This document shows, in pieces, positions 2,179 to 49,489 of a stretch of 64,000 bases of DNA. Positions within the stretch are counted from its first letter, which is position 1; each line of letters starts with the position of its first letter. Origin of the DNA: an uncultured Gammaproteobacteria bacterium (GTDB lineage: Bacteria; Patescibacteriota; Patescibacteriia; UBA9934; CAZDDW01); NCBI GenBank assembly GCA_964504365.1, contig CAZDDW010000005.1, positions 1,630 through 65,629 on the forward strand, in the 5' to 3' direction. Below the pieces are notes generated by a model, which saw nothing but the letters and a program-made list of their open reading frames with translations, ran no database searches and was not told where the DNA came from. The position numbers were made by a program, and so were the translations under genes.

Positions 2179-2212
2179 ACCCCACACCGCCCTTACCCGG
2201 CGGTTTTTCTAT

Positions 2213-2240
2213 TGACAAAAACCAAAAAAGTGAGTATACT
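2213..2240 (+). promoter_or_regulatory. promoter TTGACA-16-TATACT for tRNA-Glu
   Basis: attgacaaaaaccaaaaaagtgagtatact, about 20 nt upstream of tRNA. Confidence 0.6.
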
Positions 2241-2259
2241 CTCGACACAAACTAATCAA

Positions 2260-2334
2260 GGCCCCATCGTCTAGTGGTTAGGACGTAAGGTTCTCATCCT
2301 TGAAACCGGGGTTCGATTCCCCGTGGGGTCACCA
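2260..2334 (+). tRNA. tRNA-Glu (anticodon CUC), CCA encoded
   Basis: cloverleaf: acceptor GGCCCCA/TGGGGTC, anticodon loop TTCTCAT, T-arm GGGGTTCGATTCCCC, 3' ACCA. Confidence 0.85.
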
Positions 2335-2340
2335 ACAATC

Positions 2341-2367
2341 CGGCAGGCATCAGCCTGACGGGTTTTT
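2341..2367 (+). terminator. intrinsic terminator after tRNA-Glu
   Basis: caggc atcag cctg acgggttttt. Confidence 0.5.
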
Positions 2368-2480
2368 GATTTCCATGGGGATGAGAAGCCCGAATGGGTT
2401 CGATTGTCCGATCGAGCGAGAGGAGAGTCAAACTTGTTTGACCTCTCCCGAGCGAGGAGGCTCAATCCCGCCGTCGGCGG

Positions 2481-2500
2481 GATTCCCCGTGGGGTCACCA
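2481..2500 (+). repeat. 20-nt direct repeat of tRNA-Glu 3' end (att-like), followed by terminator 2501-2531
   Basis: gattccccgtggggtcacca identical to 2315-2334. Confidence 0.8.
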
Positions 2501-2542
2501 AAAAACCACCCGAGTAATCAGGTGGTTTTTTGTTTAAGTGTT

Positions 2543-3445
2543 TTATTCAGCTGGGACGTATTGCCGGTGGCAGGTATAGTCGTAAACATCATCAGCGACC
2601 CTTTCAGCATTATTGTCATAACTACCAGCACAGATTTCAATCAGATCAGGATGATATGTAGCTTCATCCATCTGGTAATAACTCCACCAACTATGTCCAG
2701 CGTCACCGTATCCAGTACCCACTAAATGCTCGCCGTTAAGTGCACGTGGGTAGAATGTGAAAGCAAAATCCATCATGGACGAGATTTGGTTATAATAACG
2801 GATACTGCCATAAGCCTTTCCTGGTGCATAGTCACCAATAACTAAACCAAAATTGCTAGTTGTAAAGGCAAAAAACAACTCATCATCATCTTTACAAATT
2901 CGTGACAAGTACAGATCACTGTAATAAGTCGATTCACTGGTCTCAACTAACGCAGCGATTAATATATCAATATCAATGTTAGCCGGGGCAAATTCAGTTA
3001 TCAAGTCATTAAATATTTCTGTTTCTACGTCAGCAAGATCAATGCCTCCGTAAGCCCGTTCTAGATCTGGGTGGTAATTAAGATCGTAACAATTATCAAA
3101 AGGCTCTTTATCCATGCTAGACAAATAAGTAACTTCTTGCCAAAGATTTGTCACTCCTGGATCAACATCGTCAGATGTAATTGTCCCAGAAACGTCGTAA
3201 AGAATTGTGGCATCGGTTGTTGTTTCTGGTTCGTCTGCTTCCACCAGCATCAGATCATCTGCGGTGATAAGATTTGGGTCGTTAGCCTCATCTGATTCCA
3301 TGTTTGTCCAAATCAGAGCGATTACAAGCACGGCGATGATGATAAATAAAATCGGACCAATGATCCAATGGGCGATATGTGATTTGCACTTTGACTTAAC
3401 CTCAACTTCAGGTGTGGTCTCAGTAAGGTCTTGCATATTTGGCAT
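2543..3445 (-). CDS. hypothetical membrane-anchored acidic secreted protein
   Basis: 300 aa, N-terminal TM (WIIGPILFIIIAVLVIALIW), D/E-rich ectodomain. Confidence 0.6.
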   Translation of the reverse strand: MPNMQDLTETTPEVEVKSKCKSHIAHWIIGPILFIIIAVLVIALIWTNMESDEANDPNLITADDLMLVEADEPETTTDATILYDVSGTITSDDVDPGVTNLWQEVTYLSSMDKEPFDNCYDLNYHPDLERAYGGIDLADVETEIFNDLITEFAPANIDIDILIAALVETSESTYYSDLYLSRICKDDDELFFAFTTSNFGLVIGDYAPGKAYGSIRYYNQISSMMDFAFTFYPRALNGEHLVGTGYGDAGHSWWSYYQMDEATYHPDLIEICAGSYDNNAERVADDVYDYTCHRQYVPAE

Positions 3446-3476
3446 AAAAGTATTTAATAATAATCTAAGTCTACCT

Positions 3477-3507
3477 TAAAAGAAAAAAGCGCTCAAGGAG
3501 CGCCTAG
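3477..3507 (-). terminator. intrinsic terminator (gcgctccttgagcgc + T-run) for gene 3550-3768; near-duplicate at 3860-3885
   Basis: aaaaaagcgctcaaggagcgcc and aaaaaagcgctcaaggcgctt. Confidence 0.55.
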
Positions 3508-3549
3508 GAGTAAGGGCCGGTACGATTGTTGTATAGGGTGAGTAGTCGG

Positions 3550-3768
3550 TCAGTTCAGACCGAGTTTTTCGAGACTCTTGAACGGGACGACTACCACCAT
3601 GTGGTTCTTGTCGTCAGTCTGGATACCAACGTCACTTTCACCGTCCGGAGAACCCACCTTGAAGCGACGTGACTCACACCATCCCATGGCAGCGGTCATG
3701 GCATTTGACCGTGCGGTCGGATCATCGGCAGCGAAGTCGACTGTATGTACTGCTCTTCTAAGATCCAT
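3550..3768 (-). CDS. hypothetical small protein (GC-rich islet; own TTGACA-17-TACAAA promoter at ~3800-3835 and AGGAGG SD)
   Basis: 72 aa from MDLRRAVHTVDF; SD aggagg 7 nt upstream. Confidence 0.45.
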   Translation of the reverse strand: MDLRRAVHTVDFAADDPTARSNAMTAAMGWCESRRFKVGSPDGESDVGIQTDDKNHMVVVVPFKSLEKLGLN

Positions 3769-3884
3769 TGGCCTTCCTCCTGTTGTTTTGATCAGCAGTA
3801 TGGTTAATCTGCAAAGGTTTTGTATCACAAAGTGTGGTAAATGTCAATCCCTTATACAATAAAAGAAAAAAGCGCTCAAGGCGC

Positions 3885-4370
3885 TTAGAAGCAGGAGTCG
3901 GTTCGGAGTGTACAGAATCGGCGTATACCTGGCAGGTGAGCCAATGGGACGATCAGTAGGAACAGGGCGCCACAGGCCAGGGAACAGAGTGGGACGTTGA
4001 GAAGGCTGAGGAAGAGCAGGGCACCACTGACGGTCATGGCTTCTGGTACAGCAAGCCTTAGATAGGTCAGCATGAAGCCGATCGGTATGACTGATCCGGT
4101 GATCAAAGCCGATCCGAAATGCTGTAATTGGAAGTCGGTCATCTCAGTAACACTCATTGCGGCTTGGAGACCAAGGAAGATTCCATAGCCACAGACCATG
4201 GCCGCAACAATGTCCAGTGAGCGATGCCACATGATCGCTTCCGGGTTGATCCAGTTGTGCGGGTAGCCGATGAGGTGCCCGGCAAGCAGGCTGACGACGA
4301 ACATGAGCCCGGCGACGATGAGTAGAAGAGTGGTAGACAAAAGCCAGTATTTGAACGAGCTGATGCGCAT
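3885..4370 (-). CDS. hypothetical integral membrane protein (4-5 TM)
   Basis: 161 aa, hydrophobic throughout. Confidence 0.55.
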   Translation of the reverse strand: MRISSFKYWLLSTTLLLIVAGLMFVVSLLAGHLIGYPHNWINPEAIMWHRSLDIVAAMVCGYGIFLGLQAAMSVTEMTDFQLQHFGSALITGSVIPIGFMLTYLRLAVPEAMTVSGALLFLSLLNVPLCSLACGALFLLIVPLAHLPGIRRFCTLRTDSCF

Positions 4371-4471
4371 CTTTTTCTCCAGGTAAAGGTCTTCACAAAA
4401 AGTATCTCATTTGTTAAGCTCTGTCAACCATTTGCTTTAAGTTTAAAGCAGTAGTAAAATAGAAACACTAT

Positions 4472-24077: not shown

Positions 24078-24596
24078 ATGCCTAATCCGTTGCGGAAAAA
24101 TACAGCCGAAGAAGTAAAGCCAGAGGTTGCACCCGTTGCTAAGCCTGAAGTTGAGGTAAAAAAGGAGGTTGCTGAAAAACCAGTGGAAGCGCCTAAGGAA
24201 GTTAGAAAAGACGATGAGGTTGCTGAGGTGTCACGTAAGGCTGCGCCGGCCCAAGCGAAGGATGATCAGGTAAGTGTTCTTCCTGAAGAAGACGCGCTGA
24301 CCGAAGAGGTTGAGGATATTTTAGAAGAAGATTTGGACGAAATGTATCATCAGTTACCACCGGACAAACAGCTTGAATTCAAGACTAAAGGTGAAGAAAC
24401 GGTTGGAATGATTACTCAGATGGTTGAATCAACTAAAGTGAAGAGTGGTAAGATTGTTGGCTGGATCAAGGGTTGGTTAAAGTTGATTCCAGGAGTAAAT
24501 AAATTTTTCTTAGAACAAGAGGCAAAAATAAAAACAGATAAAATTCTCTTACTTGCTGATGAAGAAAAAAAGAAGCGGGGAGAGATGATTGATTAA
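24078..24596 (+). CDS. hypothetical acidic protein with amphipathic C-terminal segment, upstream of T4CP-like ATPase
   Basis: 172 aa; KPEVxxKxEV repeats; overlaps next gene by 8 nt. Confidence 0.5.
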   Translation: MPNPLRKNTAEEVKPEVAPVAKPEVEVKKEVAEKPVEAPKEVRKDDEVAEVSRKAAPAQAKDDQVSVLPEEDALTEEVEDILEEDLDEMYHQLPPDKQLEFKTKGEETVGMITQMVESTKVKSGKIVGWIKGWLKLIPGVNKFFLEQEAKIKTDKILLLADEEKKKRGEMID

Positions 24597-27159
24597 CATG
24601 ATTTTGCAAGCACAATTTGGTATTGAACAAACGGCTGAGCTAGGGTTAGCTCCTGACCTAACTGGTCAGGCCACATCCTTGCTTCCGTTTTTGATCGTTC
24701 TGGCTGTCCTGGCAGTTATTTTTATTATTGTTTTATTTTCAGTACGTGCTTGGTTACGACGTCGAACTCGCGCCCATGGAGCCTCGTTTGAGCGTGTTGT
24801 TATTCTGGTGGCTATTCCAAAGTTTAAGAGTCAAGAAGATACTAAAAAGGAAGGCACACAGGATGTTCAGCAGCTTATTGATGATGCGGAAAGTTTTTTT
24901 GCAGCTGTTGGTGGATTAAAATCTCAAAAGGGAATTGTTAAATGGTTTACAGGTCGCAATGATGCAATGACTTTTGAAATCGTCACCCATGAAGGGCTGA
25001 CTAAATTTTATTTTTCTGTTCCGCGATCGGTAAAAGATTATGTTGAAGAGCAGTTGTTGGCCCGTTATCCAGATGCACATATTGAGGAAATGGAAGATTT
25101 TAATATTTTTAATCCAACCGGAGCGATTGTTGGTAGTTATCTAACTTTCAAGCGCCCATACGCCTTTCCGATCAAGACTTATAAGAAAATGGAGAACGAT
25201 CCGCTGGATGGTCTAACAAATGCACTTTCTAAAGTGCCTAAGGATGCTGGTGTGGCGATTCAGTTTGTTGCTCGTTCAGCGCGGCCGGAATGGCGTAAGC
25301 GTGGTTTGAAAATTGCCCGTAGCATGCAGCAAGGAATGAAAATGGAAGATGCTATTAAGGGTAAGAAGAAAGGGAAGAAGGGTGTTGTTCAGGATCTGTT
25401 TGGTTCAACCAAGCCAGAACAACAAGTCGAAAAAACTCCGTATCGATTGTCACCGTTGGAAGAAGAGGCGGTAAAGGGCCTTGAGGAAAAGGCGTCCAAG
25501 GCTGGTCTGAGTTTGAATGTGCGCATTGTTGCTTCATCACAAAATGCAGCTGCTGCTCAACAAGCGTTAAATAATGTCATTTCTTCTTTTGCCCAATACA
25601 ACGTTTATCAGTTTGGAAATAATTTTTCAAAAAAGGTTCCGCGTTCTGCAAAACGGATTGTCCGTGATTTTATTTATCGACATTTTGATGAGAAGTTTAA
25701 GATTGTTGTTAACGCGGAAGAGATGGCTAGTTTGTGGCACTTGCCACTACCAACCACAGAAACACCGAACATTCACTGGCTTGGTGCTCGCCGTGCATCT
25801 GCACCGCCAACTGTGCCAAGCGAAGGTGATTTGTATTTAGGAATAAATGAGTTCCGTGGAATTAAAAAGAAATGTTACATGAAACGCGCCGACCGGCAGC
25901 GACACATGTATATCATTGGTAAATCTGGTACTGGTAAATCTGTTTCCATGCGCAGCATGATTGTTCAAGATATTAAGAATGGTGAAGGTGTTTGTGTTGT
26001 TGATCCTCATGGTGATTTGGTAGAATCCGTTCTCGGACACATTCCTGAAGAACGCATTGATGATGTTATTGTTTTTAATCCAAGTGATTTAGAACGTCCA
26101 ATGGGATTGAACATGTTAGAGGCTAAGGGTCCGGATCAGATGGACTTTGTGGTGCAGGAGATGATTGCTATTTTCTATATGTTGTTCCCACCGGAAATGA
26201 TTGGGCCATTGTTTGAGCACTACATGCGAAACGTTATGCTGACCTTAATGTCTGACCAGGAAAATCCAGGTACGATCGTTGAAATTCCACGCATGTTCTC
26301 TGACCAAACGTTTGCTGATGGTTGGATTAAGAAGGTTAAAGATCCGGTTGTTCGAGCTTATTGGGAAAAAGAAATGGCCAAGACTTCAGATTTTCACAAG
26401 TCTGAAATGCTTGGTTATCTGATTTCCAAAGTTGGTCGTTTTGTTGGAAACGAAATGATGCGTAACATCATCGGACAATCAAAATCAGCTTTTGATTTTC
26501 GTGAAGTGATGGATAAACAAAAGATTTTACTGGTGAATTTGTCTAAAGGTAAAACTGGTGAGGTCAACTCAAGTTTGCTCGGAATGATTATTGTTTCTAA
26601 GTTGCAGATGGCCGCTATGGGCCGGGCAGACATGCCAGAAGAAGAGCGCAAAGATTTTTACTTGTACATGGATGAGTTTCAGAACTTTGTCACTGAATCG
26701 ATCGCCACGATTCTGTCTGAGGCTCGTAAGTATCGTTTAGATCTGATCATGGCTCACCAGTATTTGGGACAGTTGATTAGTGAAGGTGGAAAGACTGAGG
26801 TGCGTGATGCAGTGCTTGGTAACGTGGGAACAATGATGGTTTGTCGTGTTGGTGTAGAAGATACAGAGGTTTTGGCCAAAGAGTACGAACCAGTATTTTC
26901 TGGGTATGATTTGGTAAATGCAGACAAGTTTACTTGGTACGTAAAGATGATTGTGGATAATTCTACACAAAAGCCATTTACCATGAAAAGTCCTTGGACA
27001 GACAATGGAGACACTAAGTTGGCAGAGTCAATCAAGGAGCTTTCCCGCTTAAAATACGGTCGAGACAGGGGAGTTGTTGAGGCTGATATTATGGAACGCA
27101 CGCAGCTTGGAGCAACGAATACCGCACCTCCGCCACCAACTGGGGAGAGTACGGCCTAG
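24589..27159 (+). CDS. VirD4/TraD/TraG-like type IV coupling-protein family P-loop ATPase (membrane anchored)
   Basis: 856 aa; N-terminal 2 TM; Walker A IIGKSGTGKSV; Walker B FYLYMDEFQNF; C-terminal LDLIMAHQYLGQL motif typical of TraG/VirD4. Confidence 0.6.
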   Translation: MINMILQAQFGIEQTAELGLAPDLTGQATSLLPFLIVLAVLAVIFIIVLFSVRAWLRRRTRAHGASFERVVILVAIPKFKSQEDTKKEGTQDVQQLIDDAESFFAAVGGLKSQKGIVKWFTGRNDAMTFEIVTHEGLTKFYFSVPRSVKDYVEEQLLARYPDAHIEEMEDFNIFNPTGAIVGSYLTFKRPYAFPIKTYKKMENDPLDGLTNALSKVPKDAGVAIQFVARSARPEWRKRGLKIARSMQQGMKMEDAIKGKKKGKKGVVQDLFGSTKPEQQVEKTPYRLSPLEEEAVKGLEEKASKAGLSLNVRIVASSQNAAAAQQALNNVISSFAQYNVYQFGNNFSKKVPRSAKRIVRDFIYRHFDEKFKIVVNAEEMASLWHLPLPTTETPNIHWLGARRASAPPTVPSEGDLYLGINEFRGIKKKCYMKRADRQRHMYIIGKSGTGKSVSMRSMIVQDIKNGEGVCVVDPHGDLVESVLGHIPEERIDDVIVFNPSDLERPMGLNMLEAKGPDQMDFVVQEMIAIFYMLFPPEMIGPLFEHYMRNVMLTLMSDQENPGTIVEIPRMFSDQTFADGWIKKVKDPVVRAYWEKEMAKTSDFHKSEMLGYLISKVGRFVGNEMMRNIIGQSKSAFDFREVMDKQKILLVNLSKGKTGEVNSSLLGMIIVSKLQMAAMGRADMPEEERKDFYLYMDEFQNFVTESIATILSEARKYRLDLIMAHQYLGQLISEGGKTEVRDAVLGNVGTMMVCRVGVEDTEVLAKEYEPVFSGYDLVNADKFTWYVKMIVDNSTQKPFTMKSPWTDNGDTKLAESIKELSRLKYGRDRGVVEADIMERTQLGATNTAPPPPTGESTA

Positions 27160-33421: not shown

Positions 33422-33450
33422 TTGATATTTTTTGTTAAATAAGTTATACT
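33422..33450 (+). promoter_or_regulatory. promoter TTGATA-17-TATACT for tRNA-Gln
   Basis: attgatattttttgttaaataagttatact. Confidence 0.55.
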
Positions 33451-33472: not shown

Positions 33473-33546
33473 TCCGGGATCGTCTAATGGCAGGACACGT
33501 GGTTCTGGTCCACGGTATCGGGGTTCGAATCCCTGTCCCGGAGCCA
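33473..33546 (+). tRNA. tRNA-Gln (anticodon CUG), CCA encoded
   Basis: acceptor TCCGGGA/TCCCGGA, anticodon stem CGTGG/CCACG with loop TTCTGGT, T-arm GGGGTTCGAATCCC, GCCA 3' end. Confidence 0.85.
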
Positions 33547-33703
33547 AGGAAAACTGCTCAGCTTTTGCTGAACGGTTTTTCTTTTCTGTCTGGACCATGG
33601 GTTGAGAACCTCGCTGGTTCGCCCGGCGAGGATAGCGAGAAGAAAGTTTAAGCTCATTTAAACTTTCTCGAGCGACACAGCCGGTCCTTGGCCGTAGGCC
33701 AAA

Positions 33704-33718
33704 AATCCCTGTCCCGGA
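33704..33718 (+). repeat. 15-nt direct repeat of tRNA-Gln 3' end, followed by terminator 33725-33758
   Basis: aatccctgtcccgga identical to 33528-33542. Confidence 0.75.
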
Positions 33719-33787
33719 ATCAAAAGGGCCGCACTTTAAAAAGTGTGGCTTTTTTGTTATGATAAGCAGAGAAAATAATATATTTTT

Positions 33788-48849: not shown

Positions 48850-48922
48850 ACTGTTGACATGAGTGATTTTTGCTGCTGTAATTAAACAAAGACCCCGCAA
48901 GTTTTTGCGGAGTTTTATTTTT

Positions 48923-49489
48923 ATGATAGACAAATCAGAAGCGATCTCAGCAACAAAAGAATATTTCTTGGATCTTCTACACATGTTCGGCGTTTTCTTA
49001 ACGTCGGGATATTCTATTCCACCACAATTTGCATGTGACCGATATGCCTATCAAAGATATTGTGAGCGTTGGGAACGAGTTGAGCGGAACCGTATTTTAT
49101 ATGATTTAAGAAAGCAGAAGCTAATGAAGTTGGAGGAGAGGGGAGATGAGGTGATTGTTGAATTAACTCAGAAAGGCAGAACTGAGGCTTTAAAACAGAA
49201 AATACTCTGCGAGAAAAAAGAATTATCAAAAGGTAATGTTTGTTTGGTTGGTTTTGATATTCCTGAATATACCAGGAAGACAAGATCGGTTTTTCGGCAG
49301 TTTTTGAAAAAGGTTGGATTTAAGCAGTTGCATCAAAGTGTTTGGTACTCTGAGTTAGATTTGGTCGTTCCTTTATGTGAGTTAATTAAGCAGTTGGATA
49401 TTGAGAAATGGGTAGTAGTGTTTAAGGCTGAGATAACCAGTTCTGATTTGTCTTTTGATCCGGCCGTACCAAAAGACCGATCGGTGTAG
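48923..49489 (+). CDS. putative regulator with N-terminal winged helix and C-terminal Cas2/VapD-like (PaaX-C-like) domain
   Basis: ILYDLRKQKLMKLEERGDEVIVELTQKG (wHTH); VCLVGFDIPEYTRKTRSVFRQFLKKVGFKQLHQSVWYSE resembles Cas2 beta1-alpha1-beta2 pattern. Confidence 0.4.
   Translation: MIDKSEAISATKEYFLDLLHMFGVFLTSGYSIPPQFACDRYAYQRYCERWERVERNRILYDLRKQKLMKLEERGDEVIVELTQKGRTEALKQKILCEKKELSKGNVCLVGFDIPEYTRKTRSVFRQFLKKVGFKQLHQSVWYSELDLVVPLCELIKQLDIEKWVVVFKAEITSSDLSFDPAVPKDRSV

Follow-up and report, generated by a model that had tools for sequence, protein, structure and literature searches.

Two small inserts behind tRNA genes and a conserved, structured, tRNA-linked sequence family in Patescibacteria

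The 64,000-nucleotide (nt) stretch of contig CAZDDW010000005.1 analysed here (the window) contains only two transfer RNA (tRNA) genes, tRNA-Glu(CTC) at 2260–2334 and tRNA-Gln(CTG) at 33473–33546, both on the + strand and both called by ARAGORN and Rfam, and behind each of them the end of the tRNA gene is met a second time, on the far side of a small insert. The question raised by this arrangement is what such an insert represents. A previous reading of the letters alone (hereafter the sequence-only reading) had offered three answers, namely the attachment (att) sites of a tiny element targeting tRNA genes, the scar of an excised or decayed element, and a small RNA that has its 3' end in common with the tRNA. 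The inserts, designated E1 (~2335–2500, behind tRNA-Glu) and E2 (~33547–33723, behind tRNA-Gln), almost certainly belong to a conserved, structured family linked to tRNA genes. That this is an uncatalogued family of protein-less accessory cassettes of ~170 bp, located at tRNA 3' ends in the Candidate Phyla Radiation (CPR)/Patescibacteria, is a view for and against which we find the balance even. A composite explanation, in which a recombinase-less integrative cassette carries a structured RNA, has in our judgement about an even chance of being right.

The repeats and the fold between them

The tRNA-Glu gene is intact, with its CCA encoded. Its last 20 nt, GATTCCCCGTGGGGTCACCA, which comprise the end of the T-loop, the 3' strands of the T-stem and of the acceptor, the discriminator and the CCA (2315–2334, +), occur exactly twice in the 64 kb, the second time at 2481–2500 (+), as had been noticed from the letters; with up to three mismatches allowed, 0 matches are expected by chance (100 shuffles). 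The order of elements described behind this tRNA is also found, at 2340–2535: a terminator-like hairpin with a T-run as the first component of the cassette (2340–2369, +), an insert with a strong hairpin (2422–2448), the repeat and a second terminator. The latter is an inverted repeat with 15-nt arms (2499–2532) followed by Ts (2499–2535 as a whole, without assigned strand), it also closes a convergent 300-aa open reading frame (ORF) and, judging from the A-run before it and the T-run after it, it could act in both directions. The same arrangement recurs downstream of tRNA-Gln, with a terminator-like hairpin and T-run at the start of the cassette (33556–33581, +), a copy of the last 20 nt of the tRNA identical at 18 positions (33704–33723, +) and a second terminator (33724–33756, +) recognised by eye, at a place where the terminator scan gave no flag. 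Both mismatches of this copy destroy the discriminator and the CCA (GCCA to ATCA).

The two inserts are related to each other: the motif AGCGAGA-N(15-45)-CGAGCGA occurs in the window at E1 and E2 only, with 0.01 occurrences expected, and a covariance model search of the 64 kb found no third copy of the cassette. Beyond the window, exact patterns built from the motifs common to E1 and E2 were run on viral, species-representative genome and metagenome sequences, where 1 of 19, 12 of 58 and 15 of 102 matches, respectively, were true members (~28 further loci), the remainder being chance matches in GC-rich coding DNA. Since exact motifs were required, these scans under-represent divergent members and the true range of host taxa; the family was analysed on a base of 18–19 distinct sequences. 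A covariance model built on 18 cores (R1) scores the members at 53–80 bits and also detects partial second units. The hosts are labelled as Saccharibacteria (including Nanosynbacter and Nanosyncoccus), Peregrinibacteria/Peribacteria, Uhrbacteria and unclassified Patescibacteria; two member metagenome-assembled genomes (MAGs) bear the label Gammaproteobacteria and one the label Alistipes. One member contig (L118) carries terminase-like and DNA methylase genes and is therefore probably a phage or prophage. No conserved partner protein was found near the modules, an all-against-all BLAST of the neighbouring ORFs returning within-lineage synteny only.

The member of the Alistipes-labelled MAG (L043, 7600–7760) is divergent yet convincing, with 32 bits, a P3 helix of AAAUGC/GCAUUU and a long P1 helix (helices are described below). 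It is located between rsmF and a deoxynucleoside-kinase-like gene, lacks a tRNA over a distance of 7.6 kb and has a 3' end that does not resemble a tRNA.

The fold consists of five helices (P1 to P5), with a core of ~110 nt in a unit of ~170 bp; ~35 nucleotides are invariant across the family, and the invariant motifs are GAGAAC, GGUUCG, AGCGAGA and CGAGCG. Read 5' to 3' on the tRNA strand, a unit starts with a GC-rich hairpin and a U-run, a terminator-like element that lies 8–15 nt ahead of the fold in every family member, and continues with the 5' strand of P1, a GA, P2 (GAACC-loop-GGUUC), a G(A), the 5' strand of P3, a linker of 6–8 nt, AGCGAGA, the variable hairpin P4, CGAGCG(A), a linker, the 3' strand of P3, the variable hairpin P5, the 3' strand of P1 and a tail of 6–9 nt. 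In E1 (all on the + strand) the 5' strand of P1, TTCCATGGGGA (2371–2381), pairs with 2484–2494 inside the second copy of the repeat, which then ends with the tail TCACCA. The invariant GAGAA...GGTTCG segment (2383–2402) forms P2, GAA(G)CCC (2385–2391) with GGGTTC (2396–2401), with GA on each side; GATTG (2402–2406) and CAATC (2463–2467) form P3, which is short (only 3–5 bp) in the subclass of E1. P4 (2422–2448) is enclosed by AGCGAGA (2415–2421) and CGAGCGA (2449–2455), the whole block covering 2415–2455, and these flanks form a G-C and a C-G pair, a tandem G.A and one more G-C pair. P5 is the hairpin CCGCCG-T-CGGCGG (2468–2480). The fold of E2 (33592–33723, +) has the same parts: a bulged P1 (33592–33603 with 33704–33714), P2 (33606–33610 with 33616–33620), P3 (CCGGC, 33623–33627, with GCCGG, 33680–33684), AGCGAGA (33634–33640), P4 (33641–33668), CGAGCGA (33669–33675) and P5 (33688–33693 with 33697–33702).

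The helices are backed by compensatory variation in independent lineages, as seen in 18–19 sequences on an alignment partly fitted by hand. RNAalifold on plain MAFFT alignments recovered P4, P2 and the invariant G-C, C-G and G-C pairs enclosing the tandem G.A; P3 was not recovered on these alignments, because the linkers differ in length. The sequence of P3 changes in almost every lineage (CCGGC/GCCGG, UUUGCC/GGCAAA, UCGCC/GGCGA, CACUC/GAGUG, GAUGAC/GUCAUC, CCGCGC/GCGCGG, GGAAUC/GAUUCC and AAAUGC/GCAUUU), and its own strands pair better than non-cognate ones (–6.8 vs –4.3 kcal/mol, p = 0.002). The paired fraction is 76, 83 and 81% in P1, P3 and P4, respectively, vs 58, 39 and 55% in shuffles, none of 500 of which reaches the observed values, as counted on a structure-guided alignment whose fitting by hand was partly done to the model, so that the percentages lean towards it; shifted registers give much lower paired fractions. 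In the relatives L007 and L064 the P5 of E1 is swapped for a different, fully complementary hairpin.

This conservation bears directly on the idea of a functionless scar, i.e., adjacent attL and attR remnants that remain after a prophage or an island has lost its genes. The layout is the classic one, with an intact tRNA, element DNA, a partial repeat of the tRNA 3' end and another terminator, and small unrelated inserts with partial tRNA-end repeats do exist behind tRNA-Gln in relatives. However, ~35 nucleotides are invariant and the helices compensatory in Uhrbacteria, Saccharibacteria, Peregrinibacteria and others, which a scar would not have preserved, and repeated decay to the same ~170 bp is not expected. 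We consider the scar very unlikely; the decayed or excised element of the sequence-only reading is contradicted by a fold that is conserved and covaries in several phyla. The small RNA of the same reading, on the other hand, fits such a fold, its transcript being so far a predicted one.

Known RNA families were compared with the fold. For 13 members (E1, E2 and 11 others) no family of Rfam 15 reaches its gathering score, and no description of the fold was found in Rfam 15 or in full-text literature searches, which is not proof of its being undescribed. A second tRNA or a pseudo-tRNA can be discarded, there being no ARAGORN or Rfam tRNA call in 2335–2535 or 33547–33760, even with E up to 10. 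The same applies to a transfer-messenger RNA (tmRNA), permuted or not: RF04321 gives 20.1 bits vs a gathering score of 47, in a match that spans the real tRNA 3' end, and ARAGORN reports no tmRNA. Hammerhead, T-box and kink-turn readings of GAUGAGAA fail for lack of the defining bases; in the case of the hammerhead (CUGANGA...GAAA, three helices), GAUGA does precede P2, but a variable base follows the ‘G’ on the 3' side, C3 and U4 are absent and there is no Rfam match. A riboswitch or leader of the downstream gene was rejected on the grounds that the downstream genes are not consistently co-oriented, and the similarity to annotated phages amounts to chance matches to the terminator.

Two comparisons concern tRNA recognition or mimicry. 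RNAs that bind the tRNA elbow with interdigitated T-loops (T-box stem I, RNase P and the L1 stalk) employ two unpaired pentanucleotide T-loops (PMC4810234). In the cassettes the U...A pattern is matched by UGAGA and UUCGA, but in the RNAalifold structure GAACC is paired with GGUUC, which weakens the idea of a double T-loop binding the tRNA elbow, and there is no T-box match. The tRNA-like RNAs (tmRNA, YrlA/Y RNA and viral tRNA-like structures) share with the cassettes a tRNA-type 3' end and GGUUCGA, and the CCA is present in most cassette copies; unlike them, the cassette has no acceptor 5' strand, no cloverleaf and no Rfam match, and its GGUUC pairs with GAACC, leaving no T-loop.

The copied tRNA end as a strand of helix P1

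In ~15 of the 19 distinct loci a tRNA gene, for Glu, Gln, Ser, Asn or Arg, lies 49–127 nt upstream on the same strand, the usual distance being 50–60 nt. In these tRNA-linked loci the element ends in an 11–20-nt copy of the 3' end of that very tRNA, always starting in the last bases of the T-loop, and the first 8–11 nt of the copy (end of the T-loop, T-stem 3' strand and first acceptor bases) are the 3' strand of P1. Being one strand of the closing helix, the copy is thus not a mere junction repeat. The 5' strand of P1, immediately 5' of GAGAA, has a sequence of its own for each tRNA; cognate strands pair at –14.0 kcal/mol vs –9.5 kcal/mol for non-cognate ones (Wilcoxon p = 3e-4), and the cognate strand ranks first or second among the partners in 10 of 18 cases. 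This 5' strand resembles the T-stem 5' strand, so that the fold looks like a T-arm with the core in place of its loop, although P1 regularly extends past the T-stem. At one locus (L142) the copy has diverged from its tRNA and still matches its own P1 5' strand, whereas 5 of 18 copies, including that of E2, have mutations in the terminal CCA, which indicates that the very end of the copy is less constrained than the P1 part.

In the relative L007 (3999–4050, –) a 37-nt hairpin separates the T-stem portion (ATTCCCCG) of the copied tRNA end from its acceptor portion (GTGGGGTCACCA). This insertion opens with a second CCCCGTA, as if by local duplication.

A structured RNA with a 3' match to a genomic target calls to mind the omega-RNAs of TnpB and IscB, in which, as is generally known, a scaffold precedes ~20 nt that match the target and copies can stand alone. 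Accordingly framed, the cassette would be the guide of a nuclease or transposase, with the core as scaffold, the 3' copy as an 18–20-nt guide and the GGTTCGA of the T-loop as adjacent motif. A scaffold of ~110 nt followed by a 3' target match of 15–20 nt is indeed the TnpB/Cas12 layout, and identity always begins right after the TTCG(A) of the T-loop. Nevertheless, no nuclease gene adjoins any member, the first 8–11 nt of the would-be guide are sequestered by pairing in P1, the 37-nt hairpin of L007 splits it in two, and an active nuclease would cut the tRNA gene that stands intact next door. We regard a guide RNA as highly improbable.

The role of P1 could also be conceived at the DNA level, the cassette being a folded single-stranded recombination site, of the type of integron attC or of the attP of phage CTX, in which P1 would present the tRNA-end core to a recombinase as a duplex. 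This is an improbable explanation, in spite of some features that it would accommodate: like those generally known hairpins beside a recombination core, the helices are conserved as structure and not as sequence; they lack the bias of G.U over A.C expected for RNA; and P1 rebuilds, as a duplex, the exact segment of the tRNA gene that is used as insertion point. Yet attC and attP are simple imperfect hairpins, whereas the cassette is a multi-helix junction with ~35 invariant bases, paired and unpaired; the many invariant unpaired bases and the terminators flanking the unit speak against such a site, and there is no sign of a single-stranded DNA stage or of a matching recombinase.

Gain, loss and recombination at tRNA 3' ends

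The cassettes behave as accessory DNA, i.e., they are gained, lost, amplified and found at the flanks of small cargo. The tRNA-Gln(CTG) of an Uhrbacteria relative (L190) has no module, and that of another relative (L192) has a different small hairpin element instead, the tRNA-Gln gene being inverted. At L163 perfect 179-nt units are arranged in tandem, and at L078 an array broke the assembly; the terminator that follows the last unit of the latter is a different one, which agrees with insertion of units between the tRNA and the terminator that it had originally. Locus L064 has three units, with an excisionase-like helix-turn-helix (HTH) gene and a 208-aa ORF between the first and the second; the far side of this cargo is bounded by GGTCACCA, and the tRNA-Glu end found in the second unit is a variant that differs from the tRNA of the host. 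In Saccharibacteria units are fused to partial units. The subclasses of the module cut across phyla, host phylogeny and tRNA types. No integrase was found in the cargo of L064 or on the phage-like contig L118, where only the excisionase-like HTH protein, DNA methylases and terminase-like proteins occur.

In L192 (3128–3300, +), tRNA-Gln(CTG) and a terminator are followed by a long hairpin of very high stability (z = –9), in which GACAGGGAU pairs with AUCCCUGUC around a loop of only 6 nt. AUCCCUGUC is an 8-nt copy of the T-stem 3' strand, and the hairpin corresponds to a ‘P1 without the core’; after it comes an IS1595-like zinc-ribbon ORF (3316–3729, +), and the MAG, of Uhrbacteria, also carries E1-type units. 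In L077 (1940–2064, –), GCTCGCTCGTCGTAG, placed between tRNA-Asn and the module, is the reverse complement of the CGACGA-AGCGAG region of the module and appears, from this match, to be the remnant of an inverted unit.

These gains and losses must be weighed against the possibility that the cassette is a resident small-RNA gene, in which core and copy would be co-transcribed with the tRNA, like a 3' external-transcribed-spacer RNA, and would need a tRNA-like 3' end; the identity of the repeats would be kept by selection on P1 or by gene conversion, with no mobility at all. A core that is conserved and covaries across phyla agrees with this, as do the presence of E1 in all three related Uhrbacteria loci, the L142 copy that has drifted from its tRNA while matching its own P1 5' strand, and the fold of L043 that stands between housekeeping genes with no tRNA. 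Such a gene, however, should not be absent or replaced in relatives, as E2 is, nor occur as tandem, partial and rearranged units, and the second unit of L064 with a tRNA-end variant foreign to its host is difficult to reconcile with it, together with the subclasses that follow neither host phylogeny nor tRNA type, the CCA mutated in 5 of 18 copies and the terminator interposed between tRNA and core. On balance a resident RNA seems to us rather unlikely. In the sequence-only reading, finding the segment in relatives as part of a conserved functional RNA gene was to speak against a mobile element; relatives do carry a conserved element, which in a sense is that case, but it is no tRNA, and the mobile interpretation stays alive given that the distribution is patchy and flanked by repeats.

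Recombinases are encoded near some of the cassettes. Among Peregrinibacteria, strains with a common tRNA-Gln(TTG), module and copy diverge exactly after the copy. In L088/L089 the gene of a 483-aa large serine recombinase runs towards the cassette (L089 6604–8070), and its stop codon is the TCA of the degenerate CCA, in L089 within the last 3 nt of the copy; in the other strain type (L188) a homologous recombinase is 2.4 kb away. This recombinase family is very large in CPR bacteria (~7,900 matches at E ≤ 1e-30), and at four further loci (among L194–L199) the gene of a homologue terminates within the 3' end of a genuine tRNA gene lying on the opposite strand. Taken together, the L089 junction and these four homologues indicate that a recombinase family whose normal targets are tRNA 3' ends has used the copied tRNA end as insertion point. 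No close relatives of the L089-type recombinase were found in viral contigs. The large-serine-recombinase islands of CPR bacteria (L194–L199 and L089) resemble the cassettes in targeting the last ~10–20 nt of the tRNA gene, with the difference that the L089 island sits at the copy belonging to the cassette and not at the tRNA. The att sites of serine integrases usually share a short core only, whereas the cassettes repeat 15–20 nt.

The tRNA targets of the converging recombinase genes are Gln and Gly. The homologues range from 483 to 540 aa and vary at the C-terminus, as if the attachment site were within the 3' end of the gene.

By analogy, the closest known match would be a tRNA-targeting integrative element reduced to a recombinase-less, att-flanked cassette. 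Islands and prophages at tRNA 3' ends include recombinase-less, att-flanked derivatives, such as cis-mobilisable elements and the ccr-less pseudo-SCC (staphylococcal cassette chromosome) cassettes. As in such islands, the tRNA remains intact, a direct repeat of its end delimits the insert, as found for both E1 and E2, a new terminator comes with the insert, units accumulate in tandem and the small units contain no recombinase. Unlike the islands, the cassette is ~170 bp and consists almost wholly of one conserved covarying fold, found across phyla and behind five tRNA species, and its repeat is a built-in strand of P1. As for the att sites of a tiny tRNA-targeting element, then, the repeat does behave like a junction or att-type repeat, to judge from the tRNA-Gln polymorphism, the tandems, the cargo with its excisionase-like gene and the recombinase island.

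According to the composite explanation of a recombinase-less integrative cassette with a structured RNA, the copy would have two roles. First, it would be the att-type junction repeat that results from recombination of a unit, or of a larger island with a unit at its end, into the tRNA 3' end; second, it is the 3' strand of P1, whose 5' strand is borne by the cassette and is complementary to the T-stem 3' strand and the first acceptor bases. Units may enter and multiply by means of site-specific recombinases supplied in trans by islands or phages that target tRNA 3' ends; alternatively, they may multiply by unequal crossing-over between the 15–20-nt repeats. Read-through from the strong tRNA promoter would yield a transcript of the core, which would fold and work as RNA. 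A bolder form of this scheme, in which the core is a new catalytic or recombinase-programming RNA that defines a protein-less mobile cassette and P1 pairing presents or selects the tRNA 3' end as integration site, is in our opinion improbable.

Several observations weigh against the composite explanation, in addition to the hand-fitted alignment and the unrecovered P3 mentioned above. Recombinases, transposases and reverse transcriptases are absent among the 38 ORFs of the window that were scanned (28 of them of at least 200 aa, those under 200 aa being mostly left out of the scan), serine recombinases like those of the islands included. Over 10 kb, two intact serine-recombinase islands show no module and no repeat of a tRNA end that is 10 nt or longer, and two members (L043 and L132) lack a neighbouring tRNA. 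Unequal crossing-over can give rise to tandem arrays with no recombinase involved. In the comparison with related genomes that the sequence-only reading had proposed, a tRNA-Gln without module was met in L190; at tRNA-Glu an empty site for E1 was not seen, both relatives that can be examined at this locus (L007 and L064) carrying the cassette, inverted. The helices show no strand asymmetry of G.U vs A.C (25 vs 16 in P1, 7 vs 9 in P4) and, with G.U not clearly above A.C, they do not tell by themselves which strand folds, nor whether it folds as RNA or as single-stranded DNA. The terminator at the start of each unit argues against strong expression of the core. Finally, no promoter of the core is visible in E1 or E2, the sole promoter-like site being that of the tRNA, upstream of the terminator: a sigma-70-like TTGACA-17-TATACT (11/12 matches) at 2212–2240 (+) for tRNA-Glu, the sole such site upstream of E1, and TTGATA-17-TATACT at 33422–33450 (+) for tRNA-Gln.

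CPR bacteria are largely uncultured and, to our knowledge, almost nothing has been established about their non-coding RNAs or about how their mobile DNA chooses its targets. The fold described here, compact and strongly conserved, is a mark of the 3' side of numerous tRNA genes across several CPR phyla, is physically linked to a hot spot of recombination and contains the target sequence as part of its own structure. Should it be an RNA with a role in integration, integration immunity or tRNA handling, it would represent a new class of functional RNA, and should the recombinase-programming version be true, tRNA genes would be targeted by an RNA-specified mechanism in CPR bacteria and their phages. 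Even a mere passenger motif would be a useful marker of island boundaries and of assembly breaks at CPR tRNA genes.

Genomic setting of the two cassettes

The genes around the cassettes are ordinary chromosomal ones (Mur ligase, DnaX, DnaK/DnaJ, the cysteinyl- and alanyl-tRNA synthetases CysRS and AlaRS, and MurJ). The window, part of a marine metagenome contig, is syntenic with a MAG labelled Candidatus Uhrbacteria (L064), and the closest proteins to its SpoU methylase are from Uhrbacteria and other Patescibacteria. In the relative L007, where the neighbouring proteins are 84–93% identical, tRNA-Glu and its insert are found as in the window, in a block inverted with respect to its flanks.

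In a comparison of 2200–4400 in the window with 3900–4900 in L007 and 1600–7600 in L064, the block made up of the promoter, tRNA-Glu and the cassette is inverted in the window relative to these two genomes. The window ORFs next to the copy, of 300 aa (2543–3445, –) and 92 aa (3550–3828, –), have no counterpart in L007, and the corresponding interval of L064 contains ~6 kb of unrelated ORFs. Given this difference in content among the three, the interval between a 224-aa gene and an HlyD-like gene is a variable hot spot.

Elsewhere in the window, an 856-aa protein with VirD4/TraG-type coupling-protein domains (T4SS-DNA_transf and TrwB_AAD_bind) is encoded at 24589–27159 (+), and a homologue of it is found near the SpoU/DnaX block in relatives. 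A 208-aa protein encoded at 48863–49489 (+) matches the central ‘Cas2-like’ domain of PaaX (E = 2.5e-12). Over the whole window (1–64000) the cumulative GC skew climbs almost monotonically and the long ORFs are mostly on the + strand; from the skew and the strand of the ORFs, the window probably lies within one replichore.

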